64,000 nucleotides of DNA from a virus. Its lineage: Duplodnaviria; Caudoviricetes. How positions within the stretch are numbered: position 1 is the stretch's first letter; the number at the start of each line of letters is the position of its first letter. The notes below the pieces were generated by a model, which saw only the letters and a program-made list of their open reading frames with translations, had not been told where the DNA came from and searched no databases. The position numbers and the translations under genes are program-made. The DNA is taken from IMG/VR virus record IMGVR_UViG_2974668079_000001, positions 12,351-76,350 of that record; one strand, given 5' to 3'. Positions 1 to 64,000 of this stretch are shown here, piece after piece.

Positions 1-573
1 CAGCCTAGAGATGATGAGTTCTTCTTCGAGCTAAACAACACTAAGGCGTATTCAATCCGTAACCCGTGGGATGCGAGCCAGCCGAAGGTCCCTACGGTGG
101 AAACCTGCGTTACCGCTTTCGGTGAGCTGTGCGCAGCTGCTGGCATTTTCCTAAACGAAACTGTGCAGGGTACGGAATTTGTGGGAGACGGTACTGGTAA
201 GTTCGATTTCCTAAAAATCCCAGTGCGCGGGGTGATCGTGGCTATCACGGTTATCGAAGCTCCATCCTCGCTTGGGGCTGTGCAAGTTATCGGTCAGACT
301 GCGGATCGTTGCTTTGCTCTGGTTACGGTCTACCGCGAAGACTCACAGATAAATAGTCAGGGCAATGAGTTCATCGCTCAGACTATGAATCTGAAGACTG
401 GCAAAGTACACACATGCCTGTTCCGTCTAGCTGTCGCTGAAGACCAAGACACGTTCCCAGTGTACGTTCCGAAGATGGTGTCAGTGAATGGCTACTACAA
501 CGCGCAGGAAGCCGTTGACAACCAAGCTGAAGACGTTAAGAATATGGTCCCAGTGGCTGACTTTACTGAGTAG
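1..573 (+). CDS. Hypothetical protein, 5'-truncated by the window edge
   Basis: Frame 1 is open from base 1 to TAG at 573 and is followed by a terminator; no motif recognised. Confidence 0.6.
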   Translation, partial: QPRDDEFFFELNNTKAYSIRNPWDASQPKVPTVETCVTAFGELCAAAGIFLNETVQGTEFVGDGTGKFDFLKIPVRGVIVAITVIEAPSSLGAVQVIGQTADRCFALVTVYREDSQINSQGNEFIAQTMNLKTGKVHTCLFRLAVAEDQDTFPVYVPKMVSVNGYYNAQEAVDNQAEDVKNMVPVADFTE

Positions 574-607
574 GTCACTAGGCGAACCGGACTTCCTTCG
601 GGAAACC

Positions 608-643
608 AAAGCCCTCACATCTAGCGGTGTGGGGGCTTTTTTT
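608..643 (+). terminator. Rho-independent terminator
   Basis: AAAGCCCTCACA...TGTGGGGGCTTT stem followed by a T-run. Confidence 0.8.
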
Positions 644-682
644 GTATCCTACGGCTGACAATTTACTTAACGAGGACTGCGT

Positions 683-1027
683 ATGGCAGACATAAAGGAG
701 GGCGTGCGTTCGAAACTAGACCTATATGAAGTGCAGCTAGGGCGCTGCTTTTACTGCTGTAAACCGATGTCTCCGGGCTCTTACCAACCGAGCGTCCGTG
801 CCAACGGCTTTACTAGGGACCACTTTATACCGAAGTGTGAGGGTGTTCCCGGATTTCACAATATTGTTTTAAGTTGTAAGTACTGCAACGAGAAGAAGGC
901 AGACAAGGAGCCTTCAAATAAGGCTCTGGCTAAATACGAGTTATTACTAAGAGTAAGGGCTGTGTTCCCTGACCATAATCACAAAGACTCGGTACGGCTT
1001 TCTCGTTGGAAGATTAAGTACTTTTAA
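683..1027 (+). CDS. HNH endonuclease
   Basis: CFYC, TRDHFIPK and NIVLSCKYCNEKK motifs; GAGG RBS; lies next to TerL. Confidence 0.85.
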   Translation: MADIKEGVRSKLDLYEVQLGRCFYCCKPMSPGSYQPSVRANGFTRDHFIPKCEGVPGFHNIVLSCKYCNEKKADKEPSNKALAKYELLLRVRAVFPDHNHKDSVRLSRWKIKYF

Positions 1028-1046
1028 GTTTAGTAAAGGAGACTAT

Positions 1047-2351
1047 ATGAGTTTCTGGCGTAAAGAAGAGCCAGTGATGGACGAGAACGGCAAACTGATC
1101 AAAGGCGGTATGTTTGCCCACCAACGCGAGTTTTGGGAATCAGAGAGTTTCATCACCGCGTTAGTAACCGGGTACGGTGGTGGGAAGACCTTTACCGCAG
1201 GCAAGATCAGTATCTCAATGGCACTGGAGAATCCCGGCATACCGTTTATGTGTGTGTCTCCGTCGTACAAGGTCGCTCGTAAGACGATGGTAATTACTAT
1301 CAAGGAACTGCTGCAAGGTAAGCAGTCTTTGCTAGAGGGCTTTAGTTGGAAGTACAACAAGGCGGATTGGGAGTTCTTGATCCGATACAAAGGTCGTGAG
1401 GGTATTATCTGGATCGGCTCAGGCGATGACCCGGACGCCCTTAAAGGTCCTAACTTGTGTGGGGCTCTGATTGACGAACCGTTCATCCAATCACGCGAGG
1501 TATTCGAGCAGATGCTTGCTCGTGTCCGTCACCCTAACGCCCGTACTAAACGGATCATGCTGACAGGCACCCCGGAGGACTTGAACTGGGGATACGACAT
1601 CACTGAGGGTGAGGAGAAGGAGAACTTCGACGTACACTTGGTGCAGGCATCTTCGAAAGAAAACAAAGCACTTGGTAAGGAGTACACGGAACGCCTTGAG
1701 CGTGGTCTTAGTGCTCAGGCTGCTGAGTCGTACGTTAGTGGTAAGTTCGTACCGCTGGCTAAGGGTCGTGTTTACTACGGCTTCACTCGTGAGCGTAACG
1801 TTATGGAGTTCCCGGAGATTCCTAAAGGAGCTAAGATTGGATTTGGTCTCGACTTTAACGTTAACCCGATGTCGGCGGCTATGTTCTGGTCTTTGAATGG
1901 ACACATCCACTTCTTTGACGAGATCTTACTACCGAACTCGGACACCTACGACATGTGTGAGACAATATTGGCTGAGTATGGACAGTACCGCCCTATCTGT
2001 TACCCGGATGCTACCGGGCGTAAGCGTCAGACTAACGCCGCTGGCGGTATGACCGACTTCCGTATAATTAGGGATGAGTACAAGATCAAGATTGACGTTG
2101 GTTCTACCAACCCGCCTAAGCGTGACCGATACAACATAGTAAATGGCAAGCTGAATCCTAAGAAGGGCTTGCCTACTATGACTATCTCACCGAAGTGCGT
2201 GAAGATGATCCGTTACTTAGAGTCGTACTCACACGAGAAAATGAAGCAACAAGAAGAGATGTCCCACATCTTGGATGCTATGGGCTACCCTGTAGCGAGG
2301 ATGTTCCCGCTACACATGCGTGCGGGCGTTACTAAACTTGCAGGTCACTAA
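1047..2351 (+). CDS. terL: Terminase large subunit
   Basis: Walker A GYGGGKT, Walker B LIDE, coupling motif TGTP, RNase H-like GLDFN, C-terminal HILDAMGY. Confidence 0.93.
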   Translation: MSFWRKEEPVMDENGKLIKGGMFAHQREFWESESFITALVTGYGGGKTFTAGKISISMALENPGIPFMCVSPSYKVARKTMVITIKELLQGKQSLLEGFSWKYNKADWEFLIRYKGREGIIWIGSGDDPDALKGPNLCGALIDEPFIQSREVFEQMLARVRHPNARTKRIMLTGTPEDLNWGYDITEGEEKENFDVHLVQASSKENKALGKEYTERLERGLSAQAAESYVSGKFVPLAKGRVYYGFTRERNVMEFPEIPKGAKIGFGLDFNVNPMSAAMFWSLNGHIHFFDEILLPNSDTYDMCETILAEYGQYRPICYPDATGRKRQTNAAGGMTDFRIIRDEYKIKIDVGSTNPPKRDRYNIVNGKLNPKKGLPTMTISPKCVKMIRYLESYSHEKMKQQEEMSHILDAMGYPVARMFPLHMRAGVTKLAGH

Positions 2352-2364
2352 GGAGATTTTACTA

Positions 2365-3933
2365 ATGGCTGAAGAAAACAAGAAGGCTGAGAAAGTTACA
2401 TTCACAGCTAAAGAGATTGAGCACAAGAATAAGATTTACACCCAGAAGATTAAACGCTGGGAGAAGAACCGCCTAGTGTGTGCTGGTACAGACGCTGTGA
2501 AGGAGGCTGGCGTTAAGCTGTTGCCTCAGTTGGAAGGTCAGTCAACCGACGAGTACGATGCTATGGTAGTTCGTGCTAACTTCTTCCCCGGAGCTCTACG
2601 TGCCCTGCACGGTACTAATGGCATGATCCACGCCAAGACTCCAACCATCACGTTCCCGGAAGGCAAGATGTCTTATTTAGATAACATCGGTCTATCGGGC
2701 TCATCTATCGCGGAAGTGGCAGAGGAAATTACCGAGGAGCAGATGCTCCAAGGCTGGGTGGGTATCTTTGCGTTCTACAACTCCGTTCCGGGTACAAGCG
2801 AGCTAAAGCCGTTCCTGTCAGTAATCCGCGCCGAGAACATCTGGGACTGGCGCTTCGGTGTGGTAAATGGCGTTAAGCAACTAACGTACGTCAAGTTCGT
2901 TGAATACGTCGAGTCCCCTGACTCCAACATGTTCCTATCCGTTGAGATTCCGCAAGTAACTCAGCTGTGGTTAGACAAGAATGGTAAGCTTAACTACCGC
3001 ATTGTGCAGAAGCAACCGGGCGAGCAGAAGGGTGAAGCTTCATGGGTCCAAAAACAGGGCGGTGCAGTTTTAGTAAGAGGTAAGGAAGTCGAGGGAGTTC
3101 CTTTCCGTTTGATCGGTGCTCGTAAGATGTCGGGTCGTCCAGAGGAAGCTCCTATTGAGCCTATCGTAGACGTCAACATCTCACACTACATCACCTCCGC
3201 CGACTTGGAGCAGGGTCGCCACTTTACCGCACTGCCAACACCGTACATCTGTTCCGCATCGTTAGACCCAGACAAGGACTTCCGCATCGGTGGTTACAAC
3301 TGCTGGATCATCCCGGAGAACGAAGCCAAGGTAGGTATGCTTGAGTACACCGGGCAAGGTCTGCTTTCACTGGAGAAAGCCGATACTGAGAAGAAATGGG
3401 AAATGGCAGTACTGGGTGCTCGTATGCTCCAGAACGACAAGAAAGCCAATGAGTCTAAAGACACGGTCCGACTACGCCAGACGGGTGAGAACAGTATCGT
3501 TACTAACGTTGCACGCCAGTGTTCCGTAGCACTAACCTACCTCCTTGGTAAATTCATTGCCCCGTGGACCCTCGTCTCTAGCGGTACGAAAGTAGGCTTC
3601 GTACTAACCACAGACTTCTTGACCATCGAGATCTCAACCGAGATGCTGAACTCAATGGCTGCGCTGGTGGCTACCGACAAGATGTCTATGGAAACATTCT
3701 TCTACAACTTGCAGCGTGGTGGTATCTACGAAGCTGGTACTACTCTTGAGAAAGAGATGCAGCGTATCGAGAAGCAGTTTGAAAAGCAGATGAAGCAACT
3801 TGGTCGTAAGAGTGACGTGGTGGACTTAGACGATGAAGAAGACGAGATCCCGGACGATGAGCAGGCTAAGAAGGACGAGAAGAAGACTGCGACTAATGAC
3901 CACGTAGACAATCAAGCTAAGAGTAAGGATTAG
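2365..3933 (+). CDS. Portal protein (DUF4055-like)
   Basis: Follows TerL, about 520 aa, with NISHY..SADLE.G.H.TALP motif; start taken at AGGAG-preceded ATG 2365. Confidence 0.85.
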   Translation: MAEENKKAEKVTFTAKEIEHKNKIYTQKIKRWEKNRLVCAGTDAVKEAGVKLLPQLEGQSTDEYDAMVVRANFFPGALRALHGTNGMIHAKTPTITFPEGKMSYLDNIGLSGSSIAEVAEEITEEQMLQGWVGIFAFYNSVPGTSELKPFLSVIRAENIWDWRFGVVNGVKQLTYVKFVEYVESPDSNMFLSVEIPQVTQLWLDKNGKLNYRIVQKQPGEQKGEASWVQKQGGAVLVRGKEVEGVPFRLIGARKMSGRPEEAPIEPIVDVNISHYITSADLEQGRHFTALPTPYICSASLDPDKDFRIGGYNCWIIPENEAKVGMLEYTGQGLLSLEKADTEKKWEMAVLGARMLQNDKKANESKDTVRLRQTGENSIVTNVARQCSVALTYLLGKFIAPWTLVSSGTKVGFVLTTDFLTIEISTEMLNSMAALVATDKMSMETFFYNLQRGGIYEAGTTLEKEMQRIEKQFEKQMKQLGRKSDVVDLDDEEDEIPDDEQAKKDEKKTATNDHVDNQAKSKD

Positions 3934-3936
3934 TAA

Positions 3937-5055
3937 ATGGCGAACTTTAGTGACAATCTGGCGGTAGTTTACGCAGACCACCAGATTGACCTATACCGCT
4001 ATGAAGCCAACCAGCGGCAAGACATTGCCGCTTTCCTACTGGCAATGGCGGACGAGATAAGAGAGGCGTTACTAAAAGCTGACTTCGGCTCACAGCCGTT
4101 TGTTACTAAACGTAAACTCAATGCGTTACTAAAAGAAATCGAAGCAATCATCAAGCAGTACTACAAAGACGCTCGTGACTACCAGCTAGGCGAGCTGAAG
4201 CAGTTAAGCGTAATCGAATACGCTTGGGCTATGTCTGCGATGAACAACACCATTGGTGCCAGCCTGTTCGAGACCTTCCTTACTAATCACTTCCTAGAGA
4301 GTGTCGTTAGTAATGTCCTGATTGAAGGTGCTCCGTCTAAAGAGTGGTGGGCTCGTCAGGCTACAGACACAATGGAGAAATTTGTAGACCAGATACGTAT
4401 GGGTGTAGCACTCGGTGAGACTAACGATCAGTTAATCGAACGGGTGAACGGCAAGTTCCTCCATAAGTTCGGCAAGCGTAAGATGTCTGATGGTAAGGTT
4501 AAACGCTACGGCTTGTACGAGGGTGGAATACTCAAGACATCGCGCTCTAACGCTGAGACTTTAGTAAGAAGTTCCGTGCAGGCTATTGCGAATGATGCTA
4601 AGATGCGAATGTACGCAGCTAACGACGACCTACTGCATGGTTATCAACAGCTATCGGTACTGGACTTAAAAACATCTGACATCTGTATCGCCAGAAGTGG
4701 TCTTGCGTGGACGGTAGAGGGTAAGCCGATTGGGAATCACAAGAAGCGTTTCCGAATCCCCCCTCTACACTGGAATTGCCGATCACTGCTGTTACCGATT
4801 CTGAAATCGTGGCAAGATATGCCGGGTAAAGTGCGTACTAGCCTTCCGGGAAGTATGCAGGCAAGTATGGATGGTCTAGTTAGTGCTGACCAAACGTACG
4901 AAGATATGCTCAAGCGTCGTACAGATGCTGAGATCAAGAAGAAGCTTGGACCGGGTAGATTCGAGTTGTGGAAACAGGGTAAACTAACACTACGCGATCT
5001 CACCGACCAAGATGATCGACCATTAACATTGAAAGAGTATCGAGAAAGTGCTTAA
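3937..5055 (+). CDS. Minor head morphogenesis protein (Mu F / SPP1 gp7-like)
   Basis: LDLKTSDIC and PPLHWNCRS motifs; position after portal. Confidence 0.85.
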   Translation: MANFSDNLAVVYADHQIDLYRYEANQRQDIAAFLLAMADEIREALLKADFGSQPFVTKRKLNALLKEIEAIIKQYYKDARDYQLGELKQLSVIEYAWAMSAMNNTIGASLFETFLTNHFLESVVSNVLIEGAPSKEWWARQATDTMEKFVDQIRMGVALGETNDQLIERVNGKFLHKFGKRKMSDGKVKRYGLYEGGILKTSRSNAETLVRSSVQAIANDAKMRMYAANDDLLHGYQQLSVLDLKTSDICIARSGLAWTVEGKPIGNHKKRFRIPPLHWNCRSLLLPILKSWQDMPGKVRTSLPGSMQASMDGLVSADQTYEDMLKRRTDAEIKKKLGPGRFELWKQGKLTLRDLTDQDDRPLTLKEYRESA

Positions 5056-5100
5056 AATACACCTCGATTTTACTAACAGTAACAGAAAGGAAATACAACC

Positions 5101-5892
5101 ATGCTTAAATTCCGTGTGCAGAAACTAGACGACGTACAAGAAGAGTTCCGCCACCTATACATCCAACAAGCTGACGGCTCTTTCCTACTCGGTGTAGAAG
5201 GTGCTGTGGACAAAGCTAAGGTAGACGAGTTCCGTAACTCAAATACCAACCTGCAATCTGCTAAAGAGCAGTTGGAGCAGCAACTGCAACAAATGGCTAG
5301 TAAGTTCGACGGTCTAGATCCAGAGCAAGCTAAAGAAGCGATGGAGATGATGAACAAGATCCGCGACCAGAAGCTAATCGAAGAAGGTAAGATCGAAGAA
5401 CTTATCGAAGCGCGTACTAAAGACATGCTTACTAACCACCAAACTCGTGAGCAAGAGCTTACGAAATCCATTAAGGACTGGGAAGGTAAGTTTAGCGGTC
5501 TTCAGTCAAACTACCGTAAGCTAAAGATCGGCTCGGACATCCTTGGTCAGCTAGACAAGATTGGTAAGGTTCACAGCTCATCCCGTGACATCATTACCGA
5601 CCTAGCTGCTCAGGTTTGGCAATTGAACGAGAAGGACGAGCTTGTGGCAATGAAAGGCGACCAGCCTGCATACAGCCCAGCCGACGCTACTAAACCACTA
5701 TCAGCTGAAGAGTGGTGTATGCAGCTAGCGAATGACCGTCCGTACCTGTTTGAGTCAACTACCTCGATCAGTTCTGGTCAAGGCGGTCAGGGTGGTCAAG
5801 GCGTTAAGGGTGTTATCAGCGGCGACGATATGGACGCATTCGAGAACAACCTTGAAGCAATTGCATCCGGTGAAGTTCAAGTAAACGTTTAA
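5101..5892 (+). CDS. Capsid scaffolding protein
   Basis: Coiled-coil, charged protein directly upstream of the major capsid gene; PYLFES..GQG motif. Confidence 0.7.
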   Translation: MLKFRVQKLDDVQEEFRHLYIQQADGSFLLGVEGAVDKAKVDEFRNSNTNLQSAKEQLEQQLQQMASKFDGLDPEQAKEAMEMMNKIRDQKLIEEGKIEELIEARTKDMLTNHQTREQELTKSIKDWEGKFSGLQSNYRKLKIGSDILGQLDKIGKVHSSSRDIITDLAAQVWQLNEKDELVAMKGDQPAYSPADATKPLSAEEWCMQLANDRPYLFESTTSISSGQGGQGGQGVKGVISGDDMDAFENNLEAIASGEVQVNV

Positions 5893-9228: not shown

Positions 9229-10671
9229 ATGAGTGATACTAACCGCGTACGTCTTGCCATTGTGGAAGAGACTACACCGGGGACTGTCCCTAACAACCCT
9301 AAGTTGGTACGCCAGCGCGTTACTAACATGCCGTCTCTAGCGGTAACGCCGGAGACTATCGAATCGGAAGAACTGGACCCGTCCATGCAGACAACAGACC
9401 TCATCAAAGTAGGTCAGGCTGTTGGTGGTGAGTTCGGTATGGAGTTCAGCTACGACGCTCAGAAGCAATCAATGATCGGCATCATGCGTAACAGCTGGAA
9501 CTCGTTCACGCAGTACAAGGGTGATGAAGTTGGCGCTATCTCAGCTGGCAAAGTTGCTGTTACTAACGTAGGCGCTGCGCTACCTGTTGGTGCGCTGGTT
9601 CTGTTCAAGAACTTCAACAACTCTGCTAACAACGGTGTTAAGCCTGTTACGGCTGCGACCACCACAGATATTACAGCTACGGGCTTAGTAGCCGACGCGT
9701 CTAAGACGGGTAAGGAAGCCATTCACGTAGTTGGTCTGCAAGGTGGCTCTGGTCATCTGACTGTCACCGCAAACACGCTTGAAGCTACGTCAGGGTCGAA
9801 CATCGACTTTACTAACTTTAAGCTACGTCCGGGCTCCTTGATCAAGCTGGGTGGTAAGGACGCGGCTAACCGCTTCGCTACGGCTAACGTGAACGCTATG
9901 GTGCGCGTTACTAAAATTGAAGCCAAGAAGCTTACGCTAGCTGACCTACCTACTGGATGGGCTGCTGACAACGGTGCTGGTAAGACTATTCAAGTCTGGT
10001 TGCCAGAGGACGACATTGTGAACGGAGTGGCTACCAAGTCATTCACGTTCCTGCAATCATTCTTGGACCACAACCCGGTAACACACCAGATCTTCAATGG
10101 TATGCGTATCGGTACTATGAACATGGAGATGCGTTCTAAGCAGATCGTTACGTTCAGCATCAACGCTCAGGGTACTAAGGGTGCTATCGACGAGACGGGT
10201 GTGGCGGGTGCTACTATCCTGCCAGCGTCTACAGACGTGGTAATCAACACCTCGTCTAACGTTGCGGAGCTACGCGAAGCTGGTCGTAAGATTGAAGGTC
10301 CGAACTACGTGACAGGCGTTACACTGGCGCTGAACAACAACCCACGTAACGACGACGCAATCGGCTACGAGTCTCCGGTTAACATCGGTGGTGGTACGTT
10401 CCAGCTGACAGGCACGCTAAACACGTACTTTGGCAACAAGTCGCTAGTTGAGAAGGTGATCAACAACTCGACAACGTCACTGCTCCTAAACTTCAAAGAC
10501 GGTGAAGGTCAGCACGTGGTGTTCGATATGCCACGCGTTAAGTACTCTAGCGGCTCTCCGGCGGTATCAGGCAAGAACGCGGCTAATACCGCAGACCTTG
10601 GCTACACGGCTCTGAAACACCTAGACTACGGCTACACGCTAGGCATTCAGAAGTTCCGTTACATGGAGTAA
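9229..10671 (+). CDS. Major tail tube protein
   Basis: VTPETIESEEL, GGEFGMEFS and LTGTLNTYF motifs; synteny. Confidence 0.8.
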   Translation: MSDTNRVRLAIVEETTPGTVPNNPKLVRQRVTNMPSLAVTPETIESEELDPSMQTTDLIKVGQAVGGEFGMEFSYDAQKQSMIGIMRNSWNSFTQYKGDEVGAISAGKVAVTNVGAALPVGALVLFKNFNNSANNGVKPVTAATTTDITATGLVADASKTGKEAIHVVGLQGGSGHLTVTANTLEATSGSNIDFTNFKLRPGSLIKLGGKDAANRFATANVNAMVRVTKIEAKKLTLADLPTGWAADNGAGKTIQVWLPEDDIVNGVATKSFTFLQSFLDHNPVTHQIFNGMRIGTMNMEMRSKQIVTFSINAQGTKGAIDETGVAGATILPASTDVVINTSSNVAELREAGRKIEGPNYVTGVTLALNNNPRNDDAIGYESPVNIGGGTFQLTGTLNTYFGNKSLVEKVINNSTTSLLLNFKDGEGQHVVFDMPRVKYSSGSPAVSGKNAANTADLGYTALKHLDYGYTLGIQKFRYME

Positions 10672-10761
10672 ATCGAAGCACTTGCGTCGAGGCACAACCT
10701 AGAATAAGATCAAAGCGTCCAATACGGGCGCTTTTTTAATATTAGTAAACAAGGAAATCCC

Positions 10762-11214
10762 ATGAAGAAGACTAACCCTTTCGCTCTATTCCGCACCTCT
10801 ACTAACGACGAAGTGAACGGCGTAGTGGTAAACTACGGCTCATTCCGCGTTACAGTGGCGTACGCTGGCGGCGCTAACACAGACTACAACCGTCTGCTTA
10901 TGAAACTTGGTAAGCCGTACTTGAAACTAATAAAGTCAGGCAACCTGCCAGAAGAAGTTACGAAAGAGATCGATGAGAAGCTTTACACGCAGACCATCAT
11001 CAAGAACTTTGAAGTAGACGTAGCTGAAGAAGGTGCAGAAGCTCCAGTGTGGAAACGCGGCATTCCAACTGAAGAAGGTGAAGTCCTAGACTACAACGAA
11101 GAGAACTTAGTAAGCCTACTACGCTCCCTTCCACACCTATTCGAAGACATTAAGTCATTCGCTCAGGATATGTCGAACTACAAACCTGATCTGGAAGTAG
11201 CTAAGGGAAACTAA
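10762..11214 (+). CDS. Tail assembly chaperone (gpG-like)
   Basis: Follows the tube gene; ends in the slippery heptamer G GGA AAC. Confidence 0.8.
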   Translation: MKKTNPFALFRTSTNDEVNGVVVNYGSFRVTVAYAGGANTDYNRLLMKLGKPYLKLIKSGNLPEEVTKEIDEKLYTQTIIKNFEVDVAEEGAEAPVWKRGIPTEEGEVLDYNEENLVSLLRSLPHLFEDIKSFAQDMSNYKPDLEVAKGN

Positions 11215-22997: not shown

Positions 22998-23511
22998 CAA
23001 CACCCAGTACGACAAGTACATCTACAAGGCATGGGAAGAGTACGTACCAGAGACACAATGCTGGTTATGGCTGAAGGCGCAATACTACCAAGAGAGTTTG
23101 CTGGACCCGGAAGCTACTAGCCATGTGGGAGCGATGGGATTAGCTCAGATCATGCCGGGAACGTGGATAGATGTTAGTAAGAAACTTAAGTTCAATCCGA
23201 GAGCATCACCGTACGACCCGAAGCTCTCTATCGAAGCCGGAGCGTTCTACTTACGCTACCAGTGGTCACAGTGGAGAGCCAAGCGGACCTTTGAGGATAG
23301 AATCAGTTTAGCCTTTGCCGGATACAACGCTGGCTTAGGCAACATACTAAAAGCACAGCGCCTGTCAGGGGGTCGGGCAGACTGGAAGTCGATTAGTTAC
23401 TTTCTACCGGAGGTCACGGGAGAGAACAGCAAAGAGACTATCCAATACGTTGAGCGTATCTTTCGCTGGAAAAAGCAACTGGACGAACGCCGAAGTTGTG
23501 CAGTTTACTAA
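22921..23511 (+). CDS. Endolysin, soluble lytic transglycosylase (SLT) with a probable signal peptide
   Basis: QESLLDPEATSHVGAMGLAQIMPGT, AGYNAG and ETIQYV motifs; start uncertain. Confidence 0.85.
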   Translation: MVKQWLFTWVLALLVLPFSSAASLVSNTQYDKYIYKAWEEYVPETQCWLWLKAQYYQESLLDPEATSHVGAMGLAQIMPGTWIDVSKKLKFNPRASPYDPKLSIEAGAFYLRYQWSQWRAKRTFEDRISLAFAGYNAGLGNILKAQRLSGGRADWKSISYFLPEVTGENSKETIQYVERIFRWKKQLDERRSCAVY

Positions 23512-23519
23512 AATGATAA

Positions 23520-23546
23520 TGGGGAGCTTCGGCTCCCCTTGTTTTT
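23520..23546 (+). terminator. Terminator of the recurrent GGGAGC-TTCG-GCTCCC type
   Basis: The same hairpin recurs near 34758, 51261 and 52886. Confidence 0.75.
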
Positions 23547-23566
23547 ACTAAGAGGGAATTACTAAA

Positions 23567-24058
23567 ATGTTTATTCGTTTACTAAGCATGGGCGGTACAT
23601 TACTAAAAGGACTATCTGCGTTCTGGAACCGATACAAATTACTAATTGTTATCACCCTCGTCGCAGGAGCTCTCTACCGCGCCTATTCCATCGGATATGA
23701 CCTAGGGTCTACCTACGAGCGTAACAAGGCTGTGGTAGCCGTTCTGGAAGCCACAACCAAGGCTCGCACGGAGGAGTTCCAGTACTATAAGAAGCAACTG
23801 CGACTTATGACCGAAAAACACAACAAAGAGCTAACACTGGAGAGAGAAAATGCTCGGATACAAGCAACCATCGACAACAAGCAACTTACTAAACAACCAG
23901 CCTGCAAAATTAGTAAAGACGATGATGCTAAGCCTGTTCTTACTAATGGGTACGTCGAGCTGTACAACGACGCAGTTCGAGCCGCAAATCGAGCCACCCA
24001 AGAAGGAGATACCGGAGGAATTACTAAAACGATGCCCACCGCTGAAAACGGTGGATAG
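23567..24058 (+). CDS. i-spanin (Rz-like)
   Basis: N-terminal TM segment plus coiled coil, after the endolysin. Confidence 0.7.
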   Translation: MFIRLLSMGGTLLKGLSAFWNRYKLLIVITLVAGALYRAYSIGYDLGSTYERNKAVVAVLEATTKARTEEFQYYKKQLRLMTEKHNKELTLERENARIQATIDNKQLTKQPACKISKDDDAKPVLTNGYVELYNDAVRAANRATQEGDTGGITKTMPTAENGG

Positions 24059-39090: not shown

Positions 39091-39138
39091 TCAAAGCCTC
39101 CCTAGGGAGGCTATTTTACTAATAGTAACGAGGTAACA

Positions 39139-49198: not shown

Positions 49199-49559
49199 CA
49201 CGGAATTAGGAATCGGTGATACCGTGGAGGTGATTGTCACTGCCAATCACTTCCTAGAGAAATTTTGTAGAGTGGGTCGTATTACTAAGAAGCATGGCTC
49301 ATTCTACTGGGTAAAGTTCAAGTTTAACTTTAGTAACGACAATAAGCATTTGCACTGTTACGACCAGATTGACTTCGGACCATTTAGCATCAACCAATTA
49401 AAACTGTTGGAGAAAAATACCAATGACACAAGCAGCGAAGAAAGTACTAAGCCTAACGGACATCATCGGAAAGTTCGCAGGCAGCGTAATCGAGTTGAAC
49501 CAGAACAAATTTCCCGCAAACCTAGAAAGCGTCGTGCAAGACTTAGCACACCACTTTAA
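49191..49559 (+). CDS. Hypothetical protein (KOW/SH3-like N-terminus)
   Basis: IGDTVEV..VGRITK; the 3' end overlaps the next gene. Confidence 0.5.
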   Translation: MSNTELGIGDTVEVIVTANHFLEKFCRVGRITKKHGSFYWVKFKFNFSNDNKHLHCYDQIDFGPFSINQLKLLEKNTNDTSSEESTKPNGHHRKVRRQRNRVEPEQISRKPRKRRARLSTPL

Positions 49560-52815: not shown

Positions 52816-52885
52816 CCAAAGCTGACTTGCCAGTGGACCGCTGGAGAGTAGCATTCGATTTGATGAGTGCCAATTAGTAAAACCT

Positions 52886-52907
52886 AGGGAGCTTCGGCTC
52901 CCTTTTT
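52886..52907 (+). terminator. Rho-independent terminator
   Basis: GGGAGC-TTCG-GCTCCC followed by TTTTT. Confidence 0.8.
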
Positions 52908-52911
52908 CGTG

Positions 52912-52971
52912 CCTAAGTGCCTAGGTGTTTTCGACCTAAGTGCCTAGGTAGTTTGAGCCTAAGTGCCTAGG
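52912..52971. repeat. Tandem array A: 3 x CCTAAGTGCCTAGG, 23-bp period
   Basis: Copies at 52912, 52935 and 52958. Confidence 0.95.
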
Positions 52972-53102
52972 CTGTTTAGTAAAAACCACCCGATGTCGGG
53001 ATTCCCGTGATCGGGCAGGAAGCCCCGCCCCGTACAGCTTTCCGCTGAATTTACACCCTTTTGGTGATCACCCCCGGAACTGAAAAATAGTTCAAAAAAC
53101 TG

Positions 53103-53130
53103 TTTACTATTAGTAAAAACCGCGTATAGT
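53103..53130 (+). promoter_or_regulatory. Sigma70-type promoter
   Basis: TTTACT-N16-TATAGT with TTAGTAA in the spacer. Confidence 0.55.
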
Positions 53131-53158
53131 TAACCGGGTAGACAAGGAGCACGCAACA

Positions 53159-53266
53159 ATGCACAAACTACTTGAAGGCTTCACGCTATTACTCGCCTCT
53201 ATACTAATTATGGGCGGTGATTCAATAATAGACTTAGCCTATAACTTTTTTAGTAATTTATTTTAG
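53159..53266 (+). CDS. 35-aa hydrophobic peptide (not in the ORF track)
   Basis: AAGGAG RBS; MHKLLEGFTLLLASILIMGGDSIIDLAYNFFSNLF. Confidence 0.6.
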   Translation: MHKLLEGFTLLLASILIMGGDSIIDLAYNFFSNLF

Positions 53267-53274
53267 TAAAGGTG

Positions 53275-53303
53275 TTGACTCACTAAAAACAGTTTAGTAA
53301 AGT
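53275..53303 (+). promoter_or_regulatory. Sigma70-type promoter for parB
   Basis: TTGACT-N17-TAAAGT; TTAGTAA overlaps the -10 element. Confidence 0.65.
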
Positions 53304-53348
53304 CAGCAACCAGAAACACGGTCACTCATTAGTAAGAGGAAAACGGAA

Positions 53349-54395
53349 ATGACTAAACGAGCTTCAGAACTTGCCAAAAACACTGCTTTTAACGATTTGT
53401 TCGCTTCAAGCAAAACGGGCTTCAACGTTGCCGAAATGAAAGACGGCGACAAGGTTAAGAAAGACTTCCGCACGTATGTAATCCACCCGTCGGCAATTCG
53501 TGTAATTGACGGCTTTAACTCCCGCATGGATTACGGCGATATTGAAGAGCTGGCGATGAGTCTTAAAGCCGAGCACGAAAACACCGGGCAGGCACTTATC
53601 CAACCGTTGATCTTGATGTCGGTTAAGGGCGAGAAAGACACTTACGATCTTATCGCTGGGCACCGTAGAATTATGGCGGTGCAGTGGTTGTGGGAGAATC
53701 TACAGTATGACGTGGGCGGCTTGATGGCTCGCATCTACAAGTACGATACGCCTTACCACCACATGATCGGCGTTAACATGCGCGAGAATGACCAAAAGCC
53801 ACTGTTACCGATTGAAGAGGCGATCAACTTCAAGCGCCTTAAAGATGCAGATTACACGCTGGAGCAGATCCGAGATCTTAGTGGTCGATCAATCTGTCAT
53901 ATTAGTAAGCGTTTAACGCTTCTAACTGGTGCGGACGAAGTTGTGGACGCGGTAGCATCCGGGGAACTTCAATCACAAATGGCGGCTGAAATTGTCGTAC
54001 GTCGTAAGGGTGACATCGAAGGACAAAAGGAGCTTGTCAAGAAAGCCACGGAAAGCAAGGAAGGCAACCGCGCTGTACGCCAGCAACTTAAGGCGGAAAT
54101 GAACTCAACCGGACGCAAGAAACGCGCTAAGAAAGCGGAGAAGACCGGGGACAAAGGCGACGTTAAAAACAAGCGCCTAACTCAAAAAGAGCATGACGAA
54201 TTAGTAACATCTCATGCGATGTGGGCGGCTGACTTTGTGAAGACGTACGGTATCCCGGTTGATCAGGTCGAAGTCATGAAAAAGGCGGGAGAGTTACGCG
54301 CTGAAGGTGACGCCGGGTATCGTAAGCTTACTAAGATGCTTCAAGAATTTGGAAAGATTGACGGAATCGCGCTTGTGCTAGGCATCGACTTATAA
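53349..54395 (+). CDS. ParB/Spo0J-family protein (CTPase domain plus HTH)
   Basis: FNSR, LIQPL, LIAGHRRIMA, RENDQKPLLPIEEA and TLEQIRDLSGRS..HISKRLTLL motifs. Confidence 0.88.
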   Translation: MTKRASELAKNTAFNDLFASSKTGFNVAEMKDGDKVKKDFRTYVIHPSAIRVIDGFNSRMDYGDIEELAMSLKAEHENTGQALIQPLILMSVKGEKDTYDLIAGHRRIMAVQWLWENLQYDVGGLMARIYKYDTPYHHMIGVNMRENDQKPLLPIEEAINFKRLKDADYTLEQIRDLSGRSICHISKRLTLLTGADEVVDAVASGELQSQMAAEIVVRRKGDIEGQKELVKKATESKEGNRAVRQQLKAEMNSTGRKKRAKKAEKTGDKGDVKNKRLTQKEHDELVTSHAMWAADFVKTYGIPVDQVEVMKKAGELRAEGDAGYRKLTKMLQEFGKIDGIALVLGIDL

Positions 54396-58087: not shown

Positions 58088-58304
58088 CATTGAAGCATTG
58101 ACGGATCGCGGATACCTTCCAGCCGGGGAGTTTAACCCGGCTATTCATAAAAAGGTTAGTAAATGCGATTTGGGCGGGATACCTTGCCGCGTGGTTAGCG
58201 GTCCCGGCTTGGAGCGCGGGATCATGCCATACCACACAACAAAGATGATCGGCGGCTTCCCGGTAGTGGTAGACAATAAAACATATTTTGTAAAATCGAA
58301 TTAG
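58062..58304 (+). CDS. Hypothetical early protein
   Basis: Fills the gap between neighbours; start uncertain. Confidence 0.5.
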   Translation: MEILTVTNSIEALTDRGYLPAGEFNPAIHKKVSKCDLGGIPCRVVSGPGLERGIMPYHTTKMIGGFPVVVDNKTYFVKSN

Positions 58305-58317
58305 TAAGGGCGTTACT

Positions 58318-58695
58318 ATGAAAAAGGTTAATAAACCACAATCAAACCGATTCTTTGAAGGCGTGCGAGATCTTGACAGCCTGATCGGGCGTTCGACTCA
58401 CAACGGCGAATACTCAAACAATGTGATCCGTTTAGGGTTCACACATTTAAACGGTCAAGTGTTGGAAGGTTGCCCGGTTTATATCACCGGGGAATTGTTC
58501 GACAAAATCGGCGGGATGGTTTACGGCAACGGCGGCGAACTAAACAAGCGTTACCGCTTGGAGATGGTTTACACAATGGGCGGCGAATATCATCTTTTTG
58601 TCAAGTACCAGCACATTAACGGATCGCGTCGTGTTTGTGCAATATCCCCGGATAGCGTCCAGCGATGGATCGACACGCAACCGAAAAGCAATTAA
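58318..58695 (+). CDS. Hypothetical early protein
   Basis: TAAGGGC RBS. Confidence 0.7.
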   Translation: MKKVNKPQSNRFFEGVRDLDSLIGRSTHNGEYSNNVIRLGFTHLNGQVLEGCPVYITGELFDKIGGMVYGNGGELNKRYRLEMVYTMGGEYHLFVKYQHINGSRRVCAISPDSVQRWIDTQPKSN

Positions 58696-58699
58696 TTTA

Positions 58700-59010
58700 A
58701 ATTATATTAGTAAGGGCGCATTTTGCGCCCTTTTTTGTACCCGGTAAGCTGTACAGCTTTATTACTAATATTTAGCTTTTTGCTGTACGTGCAGCGGCGA
58801 TCTAGGGCGATTTTTCAATTTGGCGCGAAACGAAGCTTTTAATACCATAGCAAGGCTTTTACTAAAAACCGCTTACAACGCCATACAGCGCGAATTTGGG
58901 GCATATTACTAAAACGTGTTTTAGTAATTACTATTAGTAAAAAGAGTTATAAAAATAATTGTTGAAAGTTGCATTTTCCTATTGTACCCGGACCGGGTTT
59001 TTAGTAATAT
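58700..59010 (+). repeat. About 310-bp direct repeat, copy 1 (terminator, spacer, early promoter 3)
   Basis: Aligns with 60190-60500; AAGGGCGCA-TTT-TGCGCCCTTTTTT terminator; TTGTAC-N17-TAATAT at 58982-59010. Confidence 0.92.
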
Positions 59011-59064
59011 GTATCACAAGGAAGGCGGGAAGGGTTCCCGGCTAGATTGTGTGGAGTGCTCGCA

Positions 59065-59343
59065 ATGGCATCACAAAAACTTGATATTTTCCCGGCTCGC
59101 TTGGGTTTACCGTCGCAACTAAACAAGGCTTTTAAAAAGGCGGGTTTATCCGTTGTCATATTGGATAAGCATCCACGCGGATCAGTTGCTAGCCGTGGCG
59201 ATCAAAATTTCGTTTGCTACCGTGTTGATTTTCAATCGGTTAGTAAATGTGGCGATGGTTCCGACGCTCGCCCGGCTTCAATGGCATTCACTCACAACAC
59301 AAAAACGCACCGCGTGACGTTAACAGAAATCGACTATCTTTAA
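59065..59343 (+). CDS. Hypothetical early protein
   Basis: GGAG RBS; first gene after promoter 3. Confidence 0.65.
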   Translation: MASQKLDIFPARLGLPSQLNKAFKKAGLSVVILDKHPRGSVASRGDQNFVCYRVDFQSVSKCGDGSDARPASMAFTHNTKTHRVTLTEIDYL

Positions 59344-59372
59344 TTTATATTTTTATCAGTAAGGGCTTTACA

Positions 59373-59699
59373 ATGACAGTTACTAAACTAGAAGCATTAA
59401 AAACAACTTTCGATCAAGCGGCAAACGCGGCAATCGACGCGGGCGCAACTCATTACATTATCAATAAAACGCTGTACGCGGGACAATGGATCACGTTCTC
59501 TTATAGTTTTGTTAATTGCGACAAAAAGAAACTTAATCAAGTTTTTGAAGTTGGGACGTATATCAAAGAGATGAAAACATACACACCAACGGATCGTTGG
59601 ATGTCTGACAAGTGGATCGGGCATAACCTAGACGGGCGAGACCGCCACGGAATGATCAATTCTGAATTGTTCCAGCTGGATCGCGGTATTATTAAGTAA
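59373..59699 (+). CDS. Hypothetical early protein
   Basis: TAAGGGC RBS before ATG 59373. Confidence 0.7.
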   Translation: MTVTKLEALKTTFDQAANAAIDAGATHYIINKTLYAGQWITFSYSFVNCDKKKLNQVFEVGTYIKEMKTYTPTDRWMSDKWIGHNLDGRDRHGMINSELFQLDRGIIK

Positions 59700-59744
59700 T
59701 CACACAATAACAACTATTCACACATTTATTAGTAAGGGCTTATT

Positions 59745-60185
59745 ATGAAAACTATTTGTAAAGTTATCGCGGGATCATTCGCTGGCGAGTTTGGTCGCCT
59801 TCATTCTAAATTCAGCACGGGCTTGATCATGCTGGAGGACCGCCACGGCGATCAGTTGTCTGTCACTGAAAAGCAGATCGAACGCTTGGAAGTGCGCACG
59901 GCTAACCTAAACAATCCAACTATTCAAGGTTTGATTGATATTGATGGATCTATCAAGTACGGCTTCAATAGTGGCGGCTACGAATCAAACGCGTACTTTA
60001 TCACGGCGGACGGCGGCACGCTGGCAATTAATACAGTTATCAGTGAGATCGATAAAGTTGATTTCTGCGACGACTGCGATCCGCAATGGCATATTGTACA
60101 CCACGGCGTAAACTATGAAGAGACGGATCTTTTAGACTCTCACACGGGCGAACCAATCCCGGCGGCGTACAGTGACGACGACTAA
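59745..60185 (+). CDS. Hypothetical early protein
   Basis: TAAGGGC RBS; GGY..YFITADGGTL..W.....NYE..L....G..I..AY domain; acidic. Confidence 0.7.
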   Translation: MKTICKVIAGSFAGEFGRLHSKFSTGLIMLEDRHGDQLSVTEKQIERLEVRTANLNNPTIQGLIDIDGSIKYGFNSGGYESNAYFITADGGTLAINTVISEIDKVDFCDDCDPQWHIVHHGVNYEETDLLDSHTGEPIPAAYSDDD

Positions 60186-60189
60186 AAAC

Positions 60190-60500
60190 AATTATATTAG
60201 TAAGGGCGCATTTTGCGCCCTTTTTTGTATCCGGGACTGCGTACAGCTTTATTAGTAAATAACTGCTTTTCGCTGTACGTACACCGGGGATCTAGGGCGA
60301 TTTTTCAATTTGGCGCGAAACGAAGCTTTTAATACCATAGCAAGGCTTTTACTAAAAACCGCTTAAAACGCCATACAGCGAGAATAAGAGCTATATTACT
60401 AAATCGCGTTTACCCGGTTTAATATTAGTAAAAACGTTCTAAAAATAATTGTTGAAAGTTGCATTTTCCTATTGTATCCGGTCCGCTAATTTAGTAATAT
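60190..60500 (+). repeat. About 310-bp direct repeat, copy 2 (terminator, spacer, early promoter 4)
   Basis: Offset 1490 bp from copy 1; TTGTAT-N17-TAATAT at 60472-60500. Confidence 0.92.
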
Positions 60501-60578
60501 ATTCACACGGTAAGAGATTACCAATATTAATCATTTTCCCCGGTGGATTTCCCCCGGTTTATTTAGTAAGGGCTTATT

Positions 60579-61358
60579 ATGAAAACTGTTAAAATTACTA
60601 ATTCTGATTTAGTGGCTATTCGTTCAAAGTTTGATCGCGAACTTCAAAAGCAAAAAGATCGCTACGCTGCAAACCCGGATTTGTACGGCAAGCAAACGGA
60701 AGAATCATTGATTCCACGTTGGATCGATAACGCTTATAGTAAAGCCGTGTTCCAACAATTGGAGCGCGACGGGTTAGCGTCTATCAATAAAGAATCTGAT
60801 CTTTTCTACTCATTCGCGGATCATGCTGGCGATTGCTTCGATCCTGAAGTTAATAAAGACATCGATCCGGCGGAATTGAAACGCCAGCGTAAAAACGAAT
60901 TAGCACGATTCAACCGTCAAGGCGTATACTACCATGAATTAATTGTGCTAGGCGAAACGCTAGGATCAATAGGCGGCTTTGTGGGGAATGACTTTTACGG
61001 ATCAGGCTACGACATTGATTTTTACAATACGGCGATCACTCACATTGCGAACGTGTACGGCGGCGACTTTATCCCAACACTTGACAAAATACAAAAAGCA
61101 ACCGCGCACACTGATTTAGTAACAACTTTCTTTTACTGCGATTACTCCAAAACAGTGCGCACAAAAGCGAATCATTGTGTACTAAACTTTTTTGAGCGTG
61201 ATCACCGCTGGATTGTTGATATTGATCGCGGCGTCCCGGTAGAAATCGCGGCACTTGTTTTTGAGTTGTTCCATACATCGCATGATTTTGTATGGTCCAA
61301 AACTGGCGAGCAAAAAGCGGAAATTCTAAATAAATACATCGCGGACAACTTGAAATAA
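60579..61358 (+). CDS. Hypothetical early protein
   Basis: 259 aa; TAAGGGC RBS. Confidence 0.75.
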   Translation: MKTVKITNSDLVAIRSKFDRELQKQKDRYAANPDLYGKQTEESLIPRWIDNAYSKAVFQQLERDGLASINKESDLFYSFADHAGDCFDPEVNKDIDPAELKRQRKNELARFNRQGVYYHELIVLGETLGSIGGFVGNDFYGSGYDIDFYNTAITHIANVYGGDFIPTLDKIQKATAHTDLVTTFFYCDYSKTVRTKANHCVLNFFERDHRWIVDIDRGVPVEIAALVFELFHTSHDFVWSKTGEQKAEILNKYIADNLK

Positions 61359-61373
61359 TCGGGAGTTACTAAA

Positions 61374-61556
61374 ATGCAAAATGTTTACGGTTATATCTAT
61401 ATGTCTGTTTTTTGTGAAACTGGTTTAAGCGAACGCGGTGCAAAAATTGCCGCGTCCCGTGTGGGCGCTTCCCAAGTGGGCTATCGTTCACCGATCAATA
61501 ACATGTATATTCAAACGGCGGTAAAGAATGCCGCCGGAAAATGGGAGGCGCGCTAA
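61374..61556 (+). CDS. Small hypothetical protein
   Basis: GGGAG RBS; 60 aa. Confidence 0.65.
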   Translation: MQNVYGYIYMSVFCETGLSERGAKIAASRVGASQVGYRSPINNMYIQTAVKNAAGKWEAR

Positions 61557-62604: not shown

Positions 62605-62784
62605 ATGAGTATCATGATTGAAATACACAAGGCGGAAAATCTAGATCCAGAAAGTTTCCCGTTATGCCCTTATTGCGACCAACCGATCCAAAACGTACAC
62701 GACGCAACGATAATATATAACGGTATGTTTTCCGTTTTGGCACTAGCGCATAAAACATGCCAGCAAGAAAACGAATCACAATAA
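62605..62784 (+). CDS. Small Zn-finger-like protein
   Basis: CPYC...HKTC; start at ATG 62605. Confidence 0.55.
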   Translation: MSIMIEIHKAENLDPESFPLCPYCDQPIQNVHDATIIYNGMFSVLALAHKTCQQENESQ

Positions 62785-62800
62785 TATCAATAGTGACTAC

Positions 62801-62827
62801 GCCCGGTTTAATCGCCGGGCTTTTTAT
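62801..62827 (+). terminator. Rho-independent terminator
   Basis: GCCCGG..CCGGGC followed by a T-run. Confidence 0.75.
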
Positions 62828-63423
62828 TGTCTATCGTTTACTAATAACACATTACTAAATAGTATCATTTCCCCGGTTGCCCTTCCCGGTTGTATCCGCC
62901 CGCCAGCTATCCACACGCCGCCATTTTTTCACCTCGACATAAACGCGCCGCGCAATCATATATAATGATAAATCTGTATATAACAATTCTCCCTAGTGTG
63001 TAAATACTCATTATCCTATATAGGTAGTTACCCGTGTATATTCTTTATATTATGTTATTTGTTATTAGTGTATTTATAGTTTTATTCTTAGTAAAACATT
63101 ATTCCCTTTTTGCCTATATTCCCCATCTACTGAAGAGTAAAAAGATAGTAAGCATTATATCAATAAGAAAGTGGGCGAAATCGGGGCGCAAACGGGCTAT
63201 ATCCGGGCGATTGGGCATTAACCCATATCATCGCACCACTACCACACGCAAACGGGCGCACACGGCTTTACAGCGATGCAATATATTGAGCATTCTATTA
63301 TTAGTTGTTTGCTCTTACTAAAACATTGAACAACTGGCAACAATAAATTATAATCTATACACGGTAGGGAATCGGGTTTTCCCTATATACGGAAATTCAC
63401 TATATACACATTAGGCGGTCACT

Positions 63424-63507
63424 ATGTCAGATATATACTACGGTTCGTTTTGCGCGGGCTTGTTTGCTCTTATGGTTTACGGTTGCCAACTAATGGGGGC
63501 GATGTAA
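63424..63507 (+). CDS. 27-aa hydrophobic peptide
   Basis: MSDIYYGSFCAGLFALMVYGCQLMGAM; TAATG overlap with the next ORF. Confidence 0.4.
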   Translation: MSDIYYGSFCAGLFALMVYGCQLMGAM

Positions 63508-63665
63508 TGTTATACTCATTAGTAATCATTCTATTACTGAACGGCGAGCCGCAATATCATATCGAAGATTACAATCTATCATTTGAGGATTGTCAGCACG
63601 CGCTATCACACATCGATCAGTCTATCCCGGCGATGTGTGTATCACAATCAGGTAATGAGCTATAA
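63507..63665 (+). CDS. Small secreted/membrane protein (52 aa)
   Basis: MLYSLVIILLLNGEP...C...C; followed by a terminator. Confidence 0.5.
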   Translation: MLYSLVIILLLNGEPQYHIEDYNLSFEDCQHALSHIDQSIPAMCVSQSGNEL

Positions 63666-63699
63666 CACAATAACTATTTACTAAACACTCATTACTAAA

Positions 63700-63727
63700 T
63701 GCCCGGTTCACGTCCGGGCTTTTTTAT
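63700..63727 (+). terminator. Rho-independent terminator
   Basis: GCCCGG-TTCACGT-CCGGGC followed by a T-run. Confidence 0.75.
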
Positions 63728-64000
63728 ATCTGCAATTCACTATATACAATCCTATCAATAACGCCACGCCTACCCGGACCGATTGACCGGGACCAACCGA
63801 CCAACACGCAAACGCAATGATACAACTATCAATAGACTATTGAGCATTGCATCATTACCCATTCCCTATTGAGCAATCGCACTATAAACAAATCTATTAG
63901 TAAACAATTCTATCAGTTGCGCAATTGATAATAGTGTCATTGAGTAATCTGTCAGTTGCGCAATTGAGTAATCTATCAATAAGGGGGTCCGAACCCCCCA

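Follow-up and report, generated by a model that had tools for sequence, protein, structure and literature searches.

TTASTAA, a highly iterated palindrome in the genome of a Vibrio siphophage, and a predicted adenine methyltransferase as its candidate partner

Highly iterated palindromes (HIPs) are palindromic words over-represented 15- to 300-fold in the genomes that carry them (PMC4390886, PMC5861425). In cyanobacteria, orphan methyltransferases of cognate specificity are found alongside HIP1 (GCGATCGC) and the alternate HIPs (PMC4390886), and selection conserves the HIP1 sites (PMC5861425). According to a model proposed by Elhai, methyl-directed repair promotes the gain of sites until a useful density is reached (PMC4390886). 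HIP1's function is still unsolved (PMC4390886, PMC5861425). That it has stayed so for decades is partly due to the large size of the genomes concerned and to sites numbering in the thousands. The present work concerns a HIP-type phenomenon in a 76-kb lytic phage which is grown in many laboratories as an aquaculture biocontrol agent. The 7-bp palindrome TTASTAA (S being G or C) was analysed in a stretch of 64,000 bp, hereafter termed the window, which corresponds to bases 12351-76350 of the 76,350-bp phage genome recorded as IMGVR_UViG_2974668079_000001.

This genome belongs to the genus Mardecavirus, a group of Vibrio siphophages infecting V. parahaemolyticus, V. alginolyticus and V. campbellii, and is 96-99% identical to phages BH21-A1, R12Z, KF5, KF6 and the SSP002-like phages. 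Almost all of its genes are carried by the plus strand, and the GC content of the window is 48.6%. Coordinates are those of the window unless the genome is specified.

Abundance and placement of TTASTAA

Exact counting on the plus strand of the window retrieved 243 copies of TTASTAA, of which 121 are TTAGTAA and 122 TTACTAA, where a dinucleotide shuffle of the same DNA yields 10.6±3.3 (maximum 22). A previous reading made from the sequence only had counted by hand about 240 copies, roughly one per 270 bp, against some 10 expected by chance at a GC content estimated by eye as near 48%, and the exact values agree with each of these figures. The element can be described as follows.

1..64000, both orientations: TTASTAA field, 243 sites, on average one per 263 bp, found in nearly every gene and intergenic spacer

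Over the whole genome the sites number 300, an observed to expected ratio (O/E) of 29 by base composition, and TTAGTAA and TTACTAA are by far its commonest 7-mers. The density is about 30 per 10 kb between positions 1 and 23000 (68 sites) and about 52 per 10 kb between 52001 and 64000 (63 sites), which bears out the earlier impression of some 30 per 10 kb in the structural region and a denser population after 52 kb. The bases flanking the motif lean to T on the 5' side and to A on the 3' side; A or T occupies about 65-70% of the flanking positions on each side, as the sequence-only reading had noticed.

The signal is confined to the exact word. All 21 one-mismatch variants are present at background level with 1-14 copies each, and TTAWTAA (W being A or T) totals 11 copies. 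Deviants at the outer base (VTASTAA, V being any base but T) reach an O/E of about 1.5 in the present genome and in the related phage MAR10 and of about 3 in the lineage represented by the metagenomic contig ERZ25067872 (hereafter the ERZ lineage), inner deviants being at background. The next-best interrupted palindrome of the genome has an O/E of 3.

A codon-preserving shuffle and a Markov model had been proposed along with the original observation as means to challenge it, and the enrichment survives both. Shuffling of synonymous codons within genes gives 27.7±5.0 sites (maximum 41) and shuffling of codon order 8.7±2.9, against 212 observed in genes, while a Markov model, run at order 2 on the first 40 kb, predicts 7.9 sites against 155 seen. 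Shuffling of the intergenic DNA predicts 1.5±1.2 sites against 71 observed. The over-abundance of TTASTAA is confirmed as real and as a strong and clean anomaly. This short palindrome exceeds genome-wide the 15-fold over-representation from which a word is counted as a HIP, and its sites are found both in and between open reading frames (ORFs) and are conserved beyond neutral expectation, as is also characteristic of HIPs. No publication describing a TTASTAA motif in a phage was found in the literature, in accordance with the earlier remark that no known phage motif matches it.

According to the corrected gene model, 212 of the sites of the whole genome lie in coding sequence, 17 overlap a stop codon and 71 are intergenic, which corresponds to 12.4 sites per kb in intergenic DNA versus 3.0 per kb in genes, a difference of about fourfold. 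Coding sites use just the two frames devoid of an in-frame stop. These two frames had been correctly recognised before; the list of tripeptides given with them was too narrow, as the third residue in the frame TTA-STA-Axx needs merely a codon starting with A. At gene borders, 11 genes terminate in TTAG/TAA (the stroke separating the two stops) and 12 have TTASTAA placed exactly one nucleotide ahead of the start codon. Stop codon usage, determined on 122 stop codons, comprises 37 TAG (30%) and 11 TGA, the high share of TAG being partly explained by the 11 genes that end in this way. Three examples illustrate these arrangements.

3930..3936, plus strand: tandem stop TTAG/TAA at the end of the portal gene
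23505..23645, no strand assigned: six TTACTAA densely grouped across the end of one gene, a terminator hairpin and the beginning of the following gene, with the site at 23559-23565 located one nucleotide before the ATG at 23567
52874..53335, no strand assigned: intergenic segment upstream of parB with seven TTAGTAA, all of one centre orientation, interleaved with sigma70-like promoters

The motif has also left its imprint on the encoded proteins. It is carried by 118 of the 148 contexts of the type [FLIV][ST][KN] and by 75 of the 133 contexts in which L[VL] is followed by a codon starting with A. Motif-compatible tripeptides amount to 247 in the present phage versus 150±13 upon amino-acid shuffling and to 264 versus 153 expected in MAR10, whereas the aligned orthologues in motif-free phages display no excess (29 versus 31, 67 versus 57 and 28 versus 36). 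Many of the residue differences are single conservative changes, for instance from D, Q or R to N or K. Selection on the DNA word has altered the phage proteins, with about 100 extra motif-compatible tripeptides, and this genome offers a viral case where such selection overrides protein sequence. The distribution along the genome is more even than a Poisson process would produce (coefficient of variation 0.83 versus 0.99±0.06), with a largest gap of 1,168 bp and a minimum distance of 13 bp between sites; no helical phasing between neighbouring sites was found.

Symmetry, conservation and lineage distribution

Conservation in related phages, another of the checks proposed initially, gave a clear result. 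MAR10 shares 78% DNA identity with the present genome, contains 294 TTASTAA sites and retains 184 of the 236 alignable ones (78%), versus 24% for random 7-mers. In the closer comparison with R12Z (97.2% identity), 2.4-3.1% of the sites differ where the neutral expectation is 17.8%. The centre of the 184 sites conserved in MAR10 is unchanged in 170 cases and swapped between G and C in 14, and is never A or T, although G/C positions genome-wide have become A/T in 16.3% of cases and have undergone a G-C swap in 5.7%. The exclusive use of G-C swaps indicates a reading of double-stranded DNA with two-fold symmetry, for which S is required and its orientation is free: S at the centre is under selection, and the choice of G or C is neutral. 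The same behaviour is visible within the window in a direct repeat.

58707..59007, no strand assigned: direct repeat copy 1, seven sites, that at 58762 reading TTACTAA
60197..60497, no strand assigned: direct repeat copy 2, six sites at paralogous positions, that at 60252 reading TTAGTAA

Six of the seven sites of copy 1 are also present in copy 2 and the copies are 72% identical; the swap of the centre between 58762 and 60252 with preservation of the palindrome, which the sequence-only reading had pointed out, is exact. These repeats are part of a diverged tandem duplication of about 1.5 kb at 58300-61400 (offset 1,490 bp, 72% identity over the 483 bp compared), which doubles two or three small genes and in which the motif sites are kept paralogously.

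Individual positions are replaced over longer times. Among coding sites, 123 are common to the present phage and MAR10 and 59 and 61 are lineage-specific; in the comparison with the ERZ lineage 11 are shared and 25 and 20 are lineage-specific. Such a turnover of positions at constant count, together with the even spacing, argues against site-specific roles and for a requirement of density. TTASTAA is very probably a symmetric recognition site in double-stranded DNA, held at high density by selection. The original proposal, a dimeric DNA-binding protein or a modifying enzyme acting on the whole genome, stands with respect to a symmetric, selected and genome-wide site, while none of the four partners it named, ParB, the duplicated-domain protein, the KPAA-tailed protein and the small wHTH protein (24253), gained support.

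The distribution of the motif was established in relatives and hosts. For the large terminase subunit (TerL), the polymerase and ParB, isolated phages offer no relative between about 85-90% and about 30% identity, a gap which is partly filled by metagenomic sequences. ERZ25067872, an 80-kb contig from ENA whose TerL is 79% identical, is rich in the motif, with 105 sites in the 31.9 kb covered by the comparison. A syntenic 71-kb contig (SRR33471287, TerL 59%) displays a single site in the approximately 21.3 kb compared. More distant relatives (TerL about 50%) contain 8 and 1 sites per 66 kb, with 7 and 6 for the reversed control, or no site at all. Three Vibrio genomes of 5-5.7 Mb contain 576-643 sites versus 1166-1279 for the reversed control, so that the host carries about 0.1 site per kb and the phage is about 37 times denser. 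The absence of the motif from sister phages and hosts implies that it was derived within the phage lineage and is not a host feature. A comparison of gene presence and absence with two motif-free relatives (G001 and G002), which share just the structural and replication core, was too coarse to be informative, and a scan of IMG/VR for a pattern of three clustered motifs returned, among the matches listed, mostly chance matches in AT-rich DNA and no information on distribution.

The motif-rich genomes differ in another aspect of their word usage. In the whole present genome, 26 of the 64 palindromes of six bp are reduced to one copy or none, versus about 16-19 expected for each, among them the EcoRI, BamHI, PstI, XhoI, KpnI, NcoI, NdeI, SmaI, SacII and PvuI sites. 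GGCC is present in one copy versus 171-268 expected, is absent from MAR10 and from the ERZ lineage (0 versus 95 expected there), and occurs 46 times in the motif-free sister L121 and 251 times in G001; the purge of GGCC co-occurs with TTASTAA. GATC is normal in the phage, with 316 copies.

A candidate methyltransferase and competing explanations

About 60 phage proteins were scanned against Pfam and PHROGs for a partner of the motif. Among them are PadR and ParB, a set for recombination and replication resembling that of T4, and a single enzyme of DNA modification, the sole one found.

Genome 10186-10839, about 1.5 kb upstream of the window: P0121, 217 residues, predicted orphan gamma-class N6-adenine DNA methyltransferase

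The gene of P0121 is labelled "conjugal transfer protein" in many Mardecavirus records of GenBank (KF6, PG288, OTA22, SD15, R12Z and others). Judged by its sequence and its structural model, P0121 is in all likelihood a misannotated DNA amino-methyltransferase, and the practical consequence is that a "conjugal transfer protein" in the records of therapeutic-candidate phages is a predicted DNA methyltransferase. The protein matches PHROG 799, 'DNA methyltransferase', with E=1.4e-53. Its motif I, ILEPCCG, precedes the NPPY motif, a D-x-Y-x-T-P element is also present upstream, and N96, P97 and P98 are invariant across 40 members of the family. The model (pLDDT 91) has a class I Rossmann fold dependent on S-adenosylmethionine and aligns with the catalytic domain of M.TaqI with a Z score of 15.5 and a root-mean-square deviation of 2.6 A over 161 residues; HsdM, PacII, BseCI and CamA match as well. 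Two variable loops differ in the Mardecavirus clade.

Orthologues of P0121 with at least 62% identity occur in motif-rich DNA only, that is in the present genome, MAR10, 37 of 37 Mardecavirus records, ERZ25067872 and a 2.5-kb contig which itself contains 8 TTASTAA sites versus 0.4 expected. No other early gene is as well conserved between the motif-rich lineages as that of P0121 (83% and 62%), and the relatives of P0121 beyond these orthologues are at most 35% identical. In the nearest motif-free sister the homologue is 29% identical, compared with about 59% for TerL and the major capsid protein, and G001 and G002 have neither the motif nor the gene. The form of TTASTAA, which is compact, palindromic, odd in length and degenerate (S) at its centre, is one typically seen in the targets of Type II methyltransferases, and the presence of a methyltransferase upstream of the window favours the 'modifying enzyme' branch of the earlier idea, short of proof.

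The explanation which we prefer, tentatively and with somewhat less than even confidence, is that TTASTAA is the target of P0121 and constitutes a dense epigenetic self-mark, a phage counterpart of HIP1. In its favour are the form of the site, the family assignment and structural model of P0121, the co-distribution of enzyme and motif, the HIP1 precedent, the even spacing with constant density, and the scarcity of the motif in the hosts. The motif would be a virus-borne highly iterated palindrome of about 4 sites per kb, read symmetrically, with selection acting on the number and spacing of sites and not on individual positions. P0121 would be the likeliest reader or writer, producing up to about 600 N6-methyladenines (m6A) per genome at about one site per 250 bp. 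With about 0.1 site per kb in the host, phage DNA would be recognisable as 'self' by this mark. The mark might be used for telling strands or molecules apart while recombination-dependent replication and repair proceed, for the sparing of phage DNA from a nuclease, or for packaging. The enrichment, the symmetry, the selection, the confinement to one lineage and the presence and co-distribution of the methyltransferase are observed, whereas we infer that P0121 recognises TTASTAA, that the sites are methylated and which purpose the mark serves. A more specific and more doubtful version is self-recognition by an epigenetic barcode, in which m6A written by a minimal methyltransferase on the 7-bp palindrome, a genome remodelled, amino-acid changes included, to carry it about once per 250 bp and a reader responding to density would be combined. 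If this were true, phage DNA would be told apart from host or competitor DNA by a nuclease, repair, replication or packaging factor, the system would be the first functional highly iterated palindrome in a virus, and the 76-kb genome would provide a tractable model for the HIP1 problem, which is about three decades old.

A number of points weigh against the assignment of the motif to P0121 and against the self-mark. P0121 has no separate target-recognition domain: it aligns only to residues 21-228 of M.TaqI, the C-terminal domain of which has no counterpart. In the fold comparison the rRNA adenine methyltransferases score only slightly lower (Z about 14.5), and this likeness makes an RNA substrate possible. 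The motif-free sister keeps a family member with an intact NPPF, and six other phages with family members display no hyper-abundant palindrome (top z of 5-12 versus 52 here); the family alone does not create such motifs. PadR, the Tad2-like protein and a 271-residue HNH protein also co-vary with the motif, as judged from the 31.9 kb compared of ERZ25067872. Among the phage proteins no reader of the mark, MutH-, Vsr- or DpnI-like for instance, was found, and methylation alone gives no reason for more sites being better. No methylome of a Mardecavirus phage was found in the literature, and the small phage-derived adenine methyltransferases EcoGII and Hia5 are non-specific (PMC7735760).

Regarding the surroundings of P0121, no restriction endonuclease gene adjoins it, the neighbours being small ORFs that are non-homologous between lineages: DUF7265 in ERZ25067872 and in L214, an unrelated 132-residue ORF in the present genome. 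As the downstream gene is not conserved between lineages, P0121 has no adjacent partner. The 271-residue HNH protein was considered as an endonuclease partner and rejected, as it lies 9 kb from P0121, belongs to a large mobile HNH family and has no specific link to the motif. The unrelated Vibrio phage K473 (OZ196311.1 22283-62873) carries a member of the P0121 family and contains 13 copies of an 11-bp interrupted palindrome with an S centre, GGTCTSAGACC, in 40 kb. This is a far smaller scale, and GGTCTSAGACC may be a regulatory or terminator element of K473.

It is possible, with a probability on the low side and somewhat below that of the self-mark, that the sites form an array for a dimer that binds DNA; a phage gene would be its likelier origin than a host gene. 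Coating or organising the whole genome, such a protein could provide a nucleoid-like scaffold, stop or fend off defence nucleases that translocate along DNA, or assist packaging or ejection, and the methyltransferase would then be for ordinary anti-restriction only. Symmetric recognition, selection on density and even spacing speak for a binder, the phage exceeds its host about 37-fold in motif density, and many small early and late proteins are without recognisable family. Members of the methyltransferase family come without such motifs in other phages, and a basic leucine zipper (bZIP) dimer, yeast Yap1, reads the same 7-bp pseudo-palindrome. Against this, a contiguous 7-bp site is rare for bacterial helix-turn-helix dimers and typical for Type II enzymes, and no candidate protein was found. 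The sequence-only reading had named ParB among the possible partners, and two features of the window bear on it.

53349..54395, plus strand: ParB-like protein with HTH_ParB and ParB_N domains
52900..52975, plus strand: repeat of about 23 bp in three copies, its core being AAGTGCCTAGG, following a terminator and preceding parB

The AAGTGCCTAGG repeats may form a parS-like array for the orphan ParB. Because this array adjoins parB and is the likelier and more natural target, and TTASTAA is spread genome-wide, ParB is a poor candidate. Of the other named partners, the duplicated-domain protein (33575) and the KPAA-tailed protein (52096) offered no informative homology, and the Protein Atlas returned nothing for the 384-residue and 239-residue candidates. 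PadR was rejected as a reader: the motifs at padR flank an ordinary TTGACA-17-TACTAT promoter in a layout which is not operator-like, and regulators of this type normally read longer, spaced half-sites.

Molecular drive without function is unlikely. In this scheme, the heteroduplexes arising in recombination-dependent replication would undergo a biased process, either very-short-patch repair or gene conversion, that turns words close to the motif into TTASTAA. Methylation might direct this process, as it does in the HIP ratchet of Elhai. In favour of the scheme, the phage encodes RecA/UvsX-like, SbcCD-like and RuvC-like proteins. The near saturation of synonymous opportunities (118/148 and 75/133) would be accounted for, as would proteins altered to fit the motif (247 versus 150±13, with no excess in motif-free orthologues), the turnover of positions at constant density and the highest density in unconstrained intergenic DNA. 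On the other hand, individual sites are retained far beyond neutral expectation, and such retention was read by Xu et al. as selection and not replenishment (PMC5861425). The spacing is moreover more even than random, the depletion of one-mismatch sites below background that an efficient converter might cause is not observed, and no mismatch-specific nuclease was recognised among the phage proteins.

A signal of the Chi type, or one otherwise modulating a nuclease, through which a recombination nuclease of the host or the phage would protect or process the linear phage DNA, is very improbable. The high density on a linear genome encoding its own recombination machinery and a 'self' logic akin to that of Chi and of DNA uptake sequences would suit it, but the lack of enrichment in the hosts (about half of the reversed control) and of strand bias (121:122) speaks against a Chi-like nature, and a signal which, like Chi, is read on single-stranded DNA would not be expected to be exactly symmetric under reverse complementation. 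A coding, translational or RNA artefact (codon or dicodon bias, rare-codon pairs or an RNA motif) could be suspected from a motif containing the TTA, CTA, GTA, ACT and AGT codons in a genome with nearly all genes on one strand, but its probability is negligible and it is effectively refuted by the synonymous and codon-order shuffles (28 and 9 versus 212) and by the intergenic excess, as both usable frames are occupied, non-coding DNA is fourfold denser and the one transcribed strand is enriched in both complementary forms to the same degree.

Other features of the genome were recorded in the course of the analysis. Its anti-defence genes encode a fusion of Tad5, a Thoeris inhibitor, with MazG, the CBASS inhibitor Acb3 (E=5e-80) and a protein with a Tad2-like domain.

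49423-50607: Tad5-MazG
51337-52023: Acb3
Genome 4815-5597: Tad2-like

The thymidylate synthase which R12Z and MAR10 possess at the equivalent of about 39090-39915 has no tblastn match anywhere in the present genome, and this segment of the window contains no long plus-strand ORF.

Comparison with described systems

The self-mark proposed here can be set against several systems in which a short word is dispersed over a genome. The AP-1 (Yap1) response element of yeast, TTA(C/G)TAA, is identical in sequence and is read by a symmetric bZIP dimer. Yap1 is a eukaryotic transcription factor without evolutionary tie to the phage, and the likeness demonstrates that a dimer is able to read such a 7-mer and nothing more. 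The stoperators of cluster A mycobacteriophages are comparable as binding sites of a phage protein dispersed over the phage genome. They are asymmetric sequences of about 13 bp, present in about 25-35 copies, mostly intergenic and orientation-dependent, whereas the present genome has 300 symmetric sites, mostly inside genes. Chi and the DNA uptake sequences share with TTASTAA the property of being genome-wide over-represented words that separate own from foreign DNA; they are asymmetric, strand-biased and enriched in the cell, unlike TTASTAA, which is symmetric and unbiased and is not enriched in the host.

The Dam methylation site GATC occurs in E. coli about once per 250 bp, a density that matters for strand discrimination. 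TTASTAA resembles the Dam/GATC system of the gamma-proteobacteria, which is served by MutH and SeqA, in being a palindromic and, in its case putative, target of adenine methylation with about one site per 250 bp. The density argument for strand discrimination has been made for Dam and GATC (PMC4390886). GATC reaches this density by chance as a 4-mer, whereas the 7-mer TTASTAA needs an enrichment of about 30-fold, and a reader similar to MutH or SeqA was not found among the phage proteins.

The closest likeness is to HIP1 (GCGATCGC): in both cases a short palindrome is found in and between genes and conserved beyond neutral expectation, in a genome carrying an orphan methyltransferase, predicted as such for the phage. 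The deviants of HIP1 are biased to the outermost positions, and a tendency of this kind may exist for TTASTAA, the outer-base deviants of which have an O/E of about 3 in the ERZ lineage and of about 1.5 in the present genome and MAR10. The two systems differ in that HIP1 belongs to cellular genomes and TTASTAA is viral, AT-rich and odd-numbered in length, with S in the middle. TTASTAA sites number about 4 per kb, HIP1 sites roughly 1 per kb. The enzymes associated with HIP1 are of the 5-methylcytosine or Dam type, while the candidate enzyme of the phage is a putative N6-adenine methyltransferase of unproven specificity. HIP1 displays a periodicity of 10-90 kb, and the phage genome is just 76 kb long. 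TTASTAA is the first HIP-like system in a virus that we can find, and with 300 sites, one candidate enzyme and both sister phages and a host free of the motif, it renders the question posed by HIPs directly testable.

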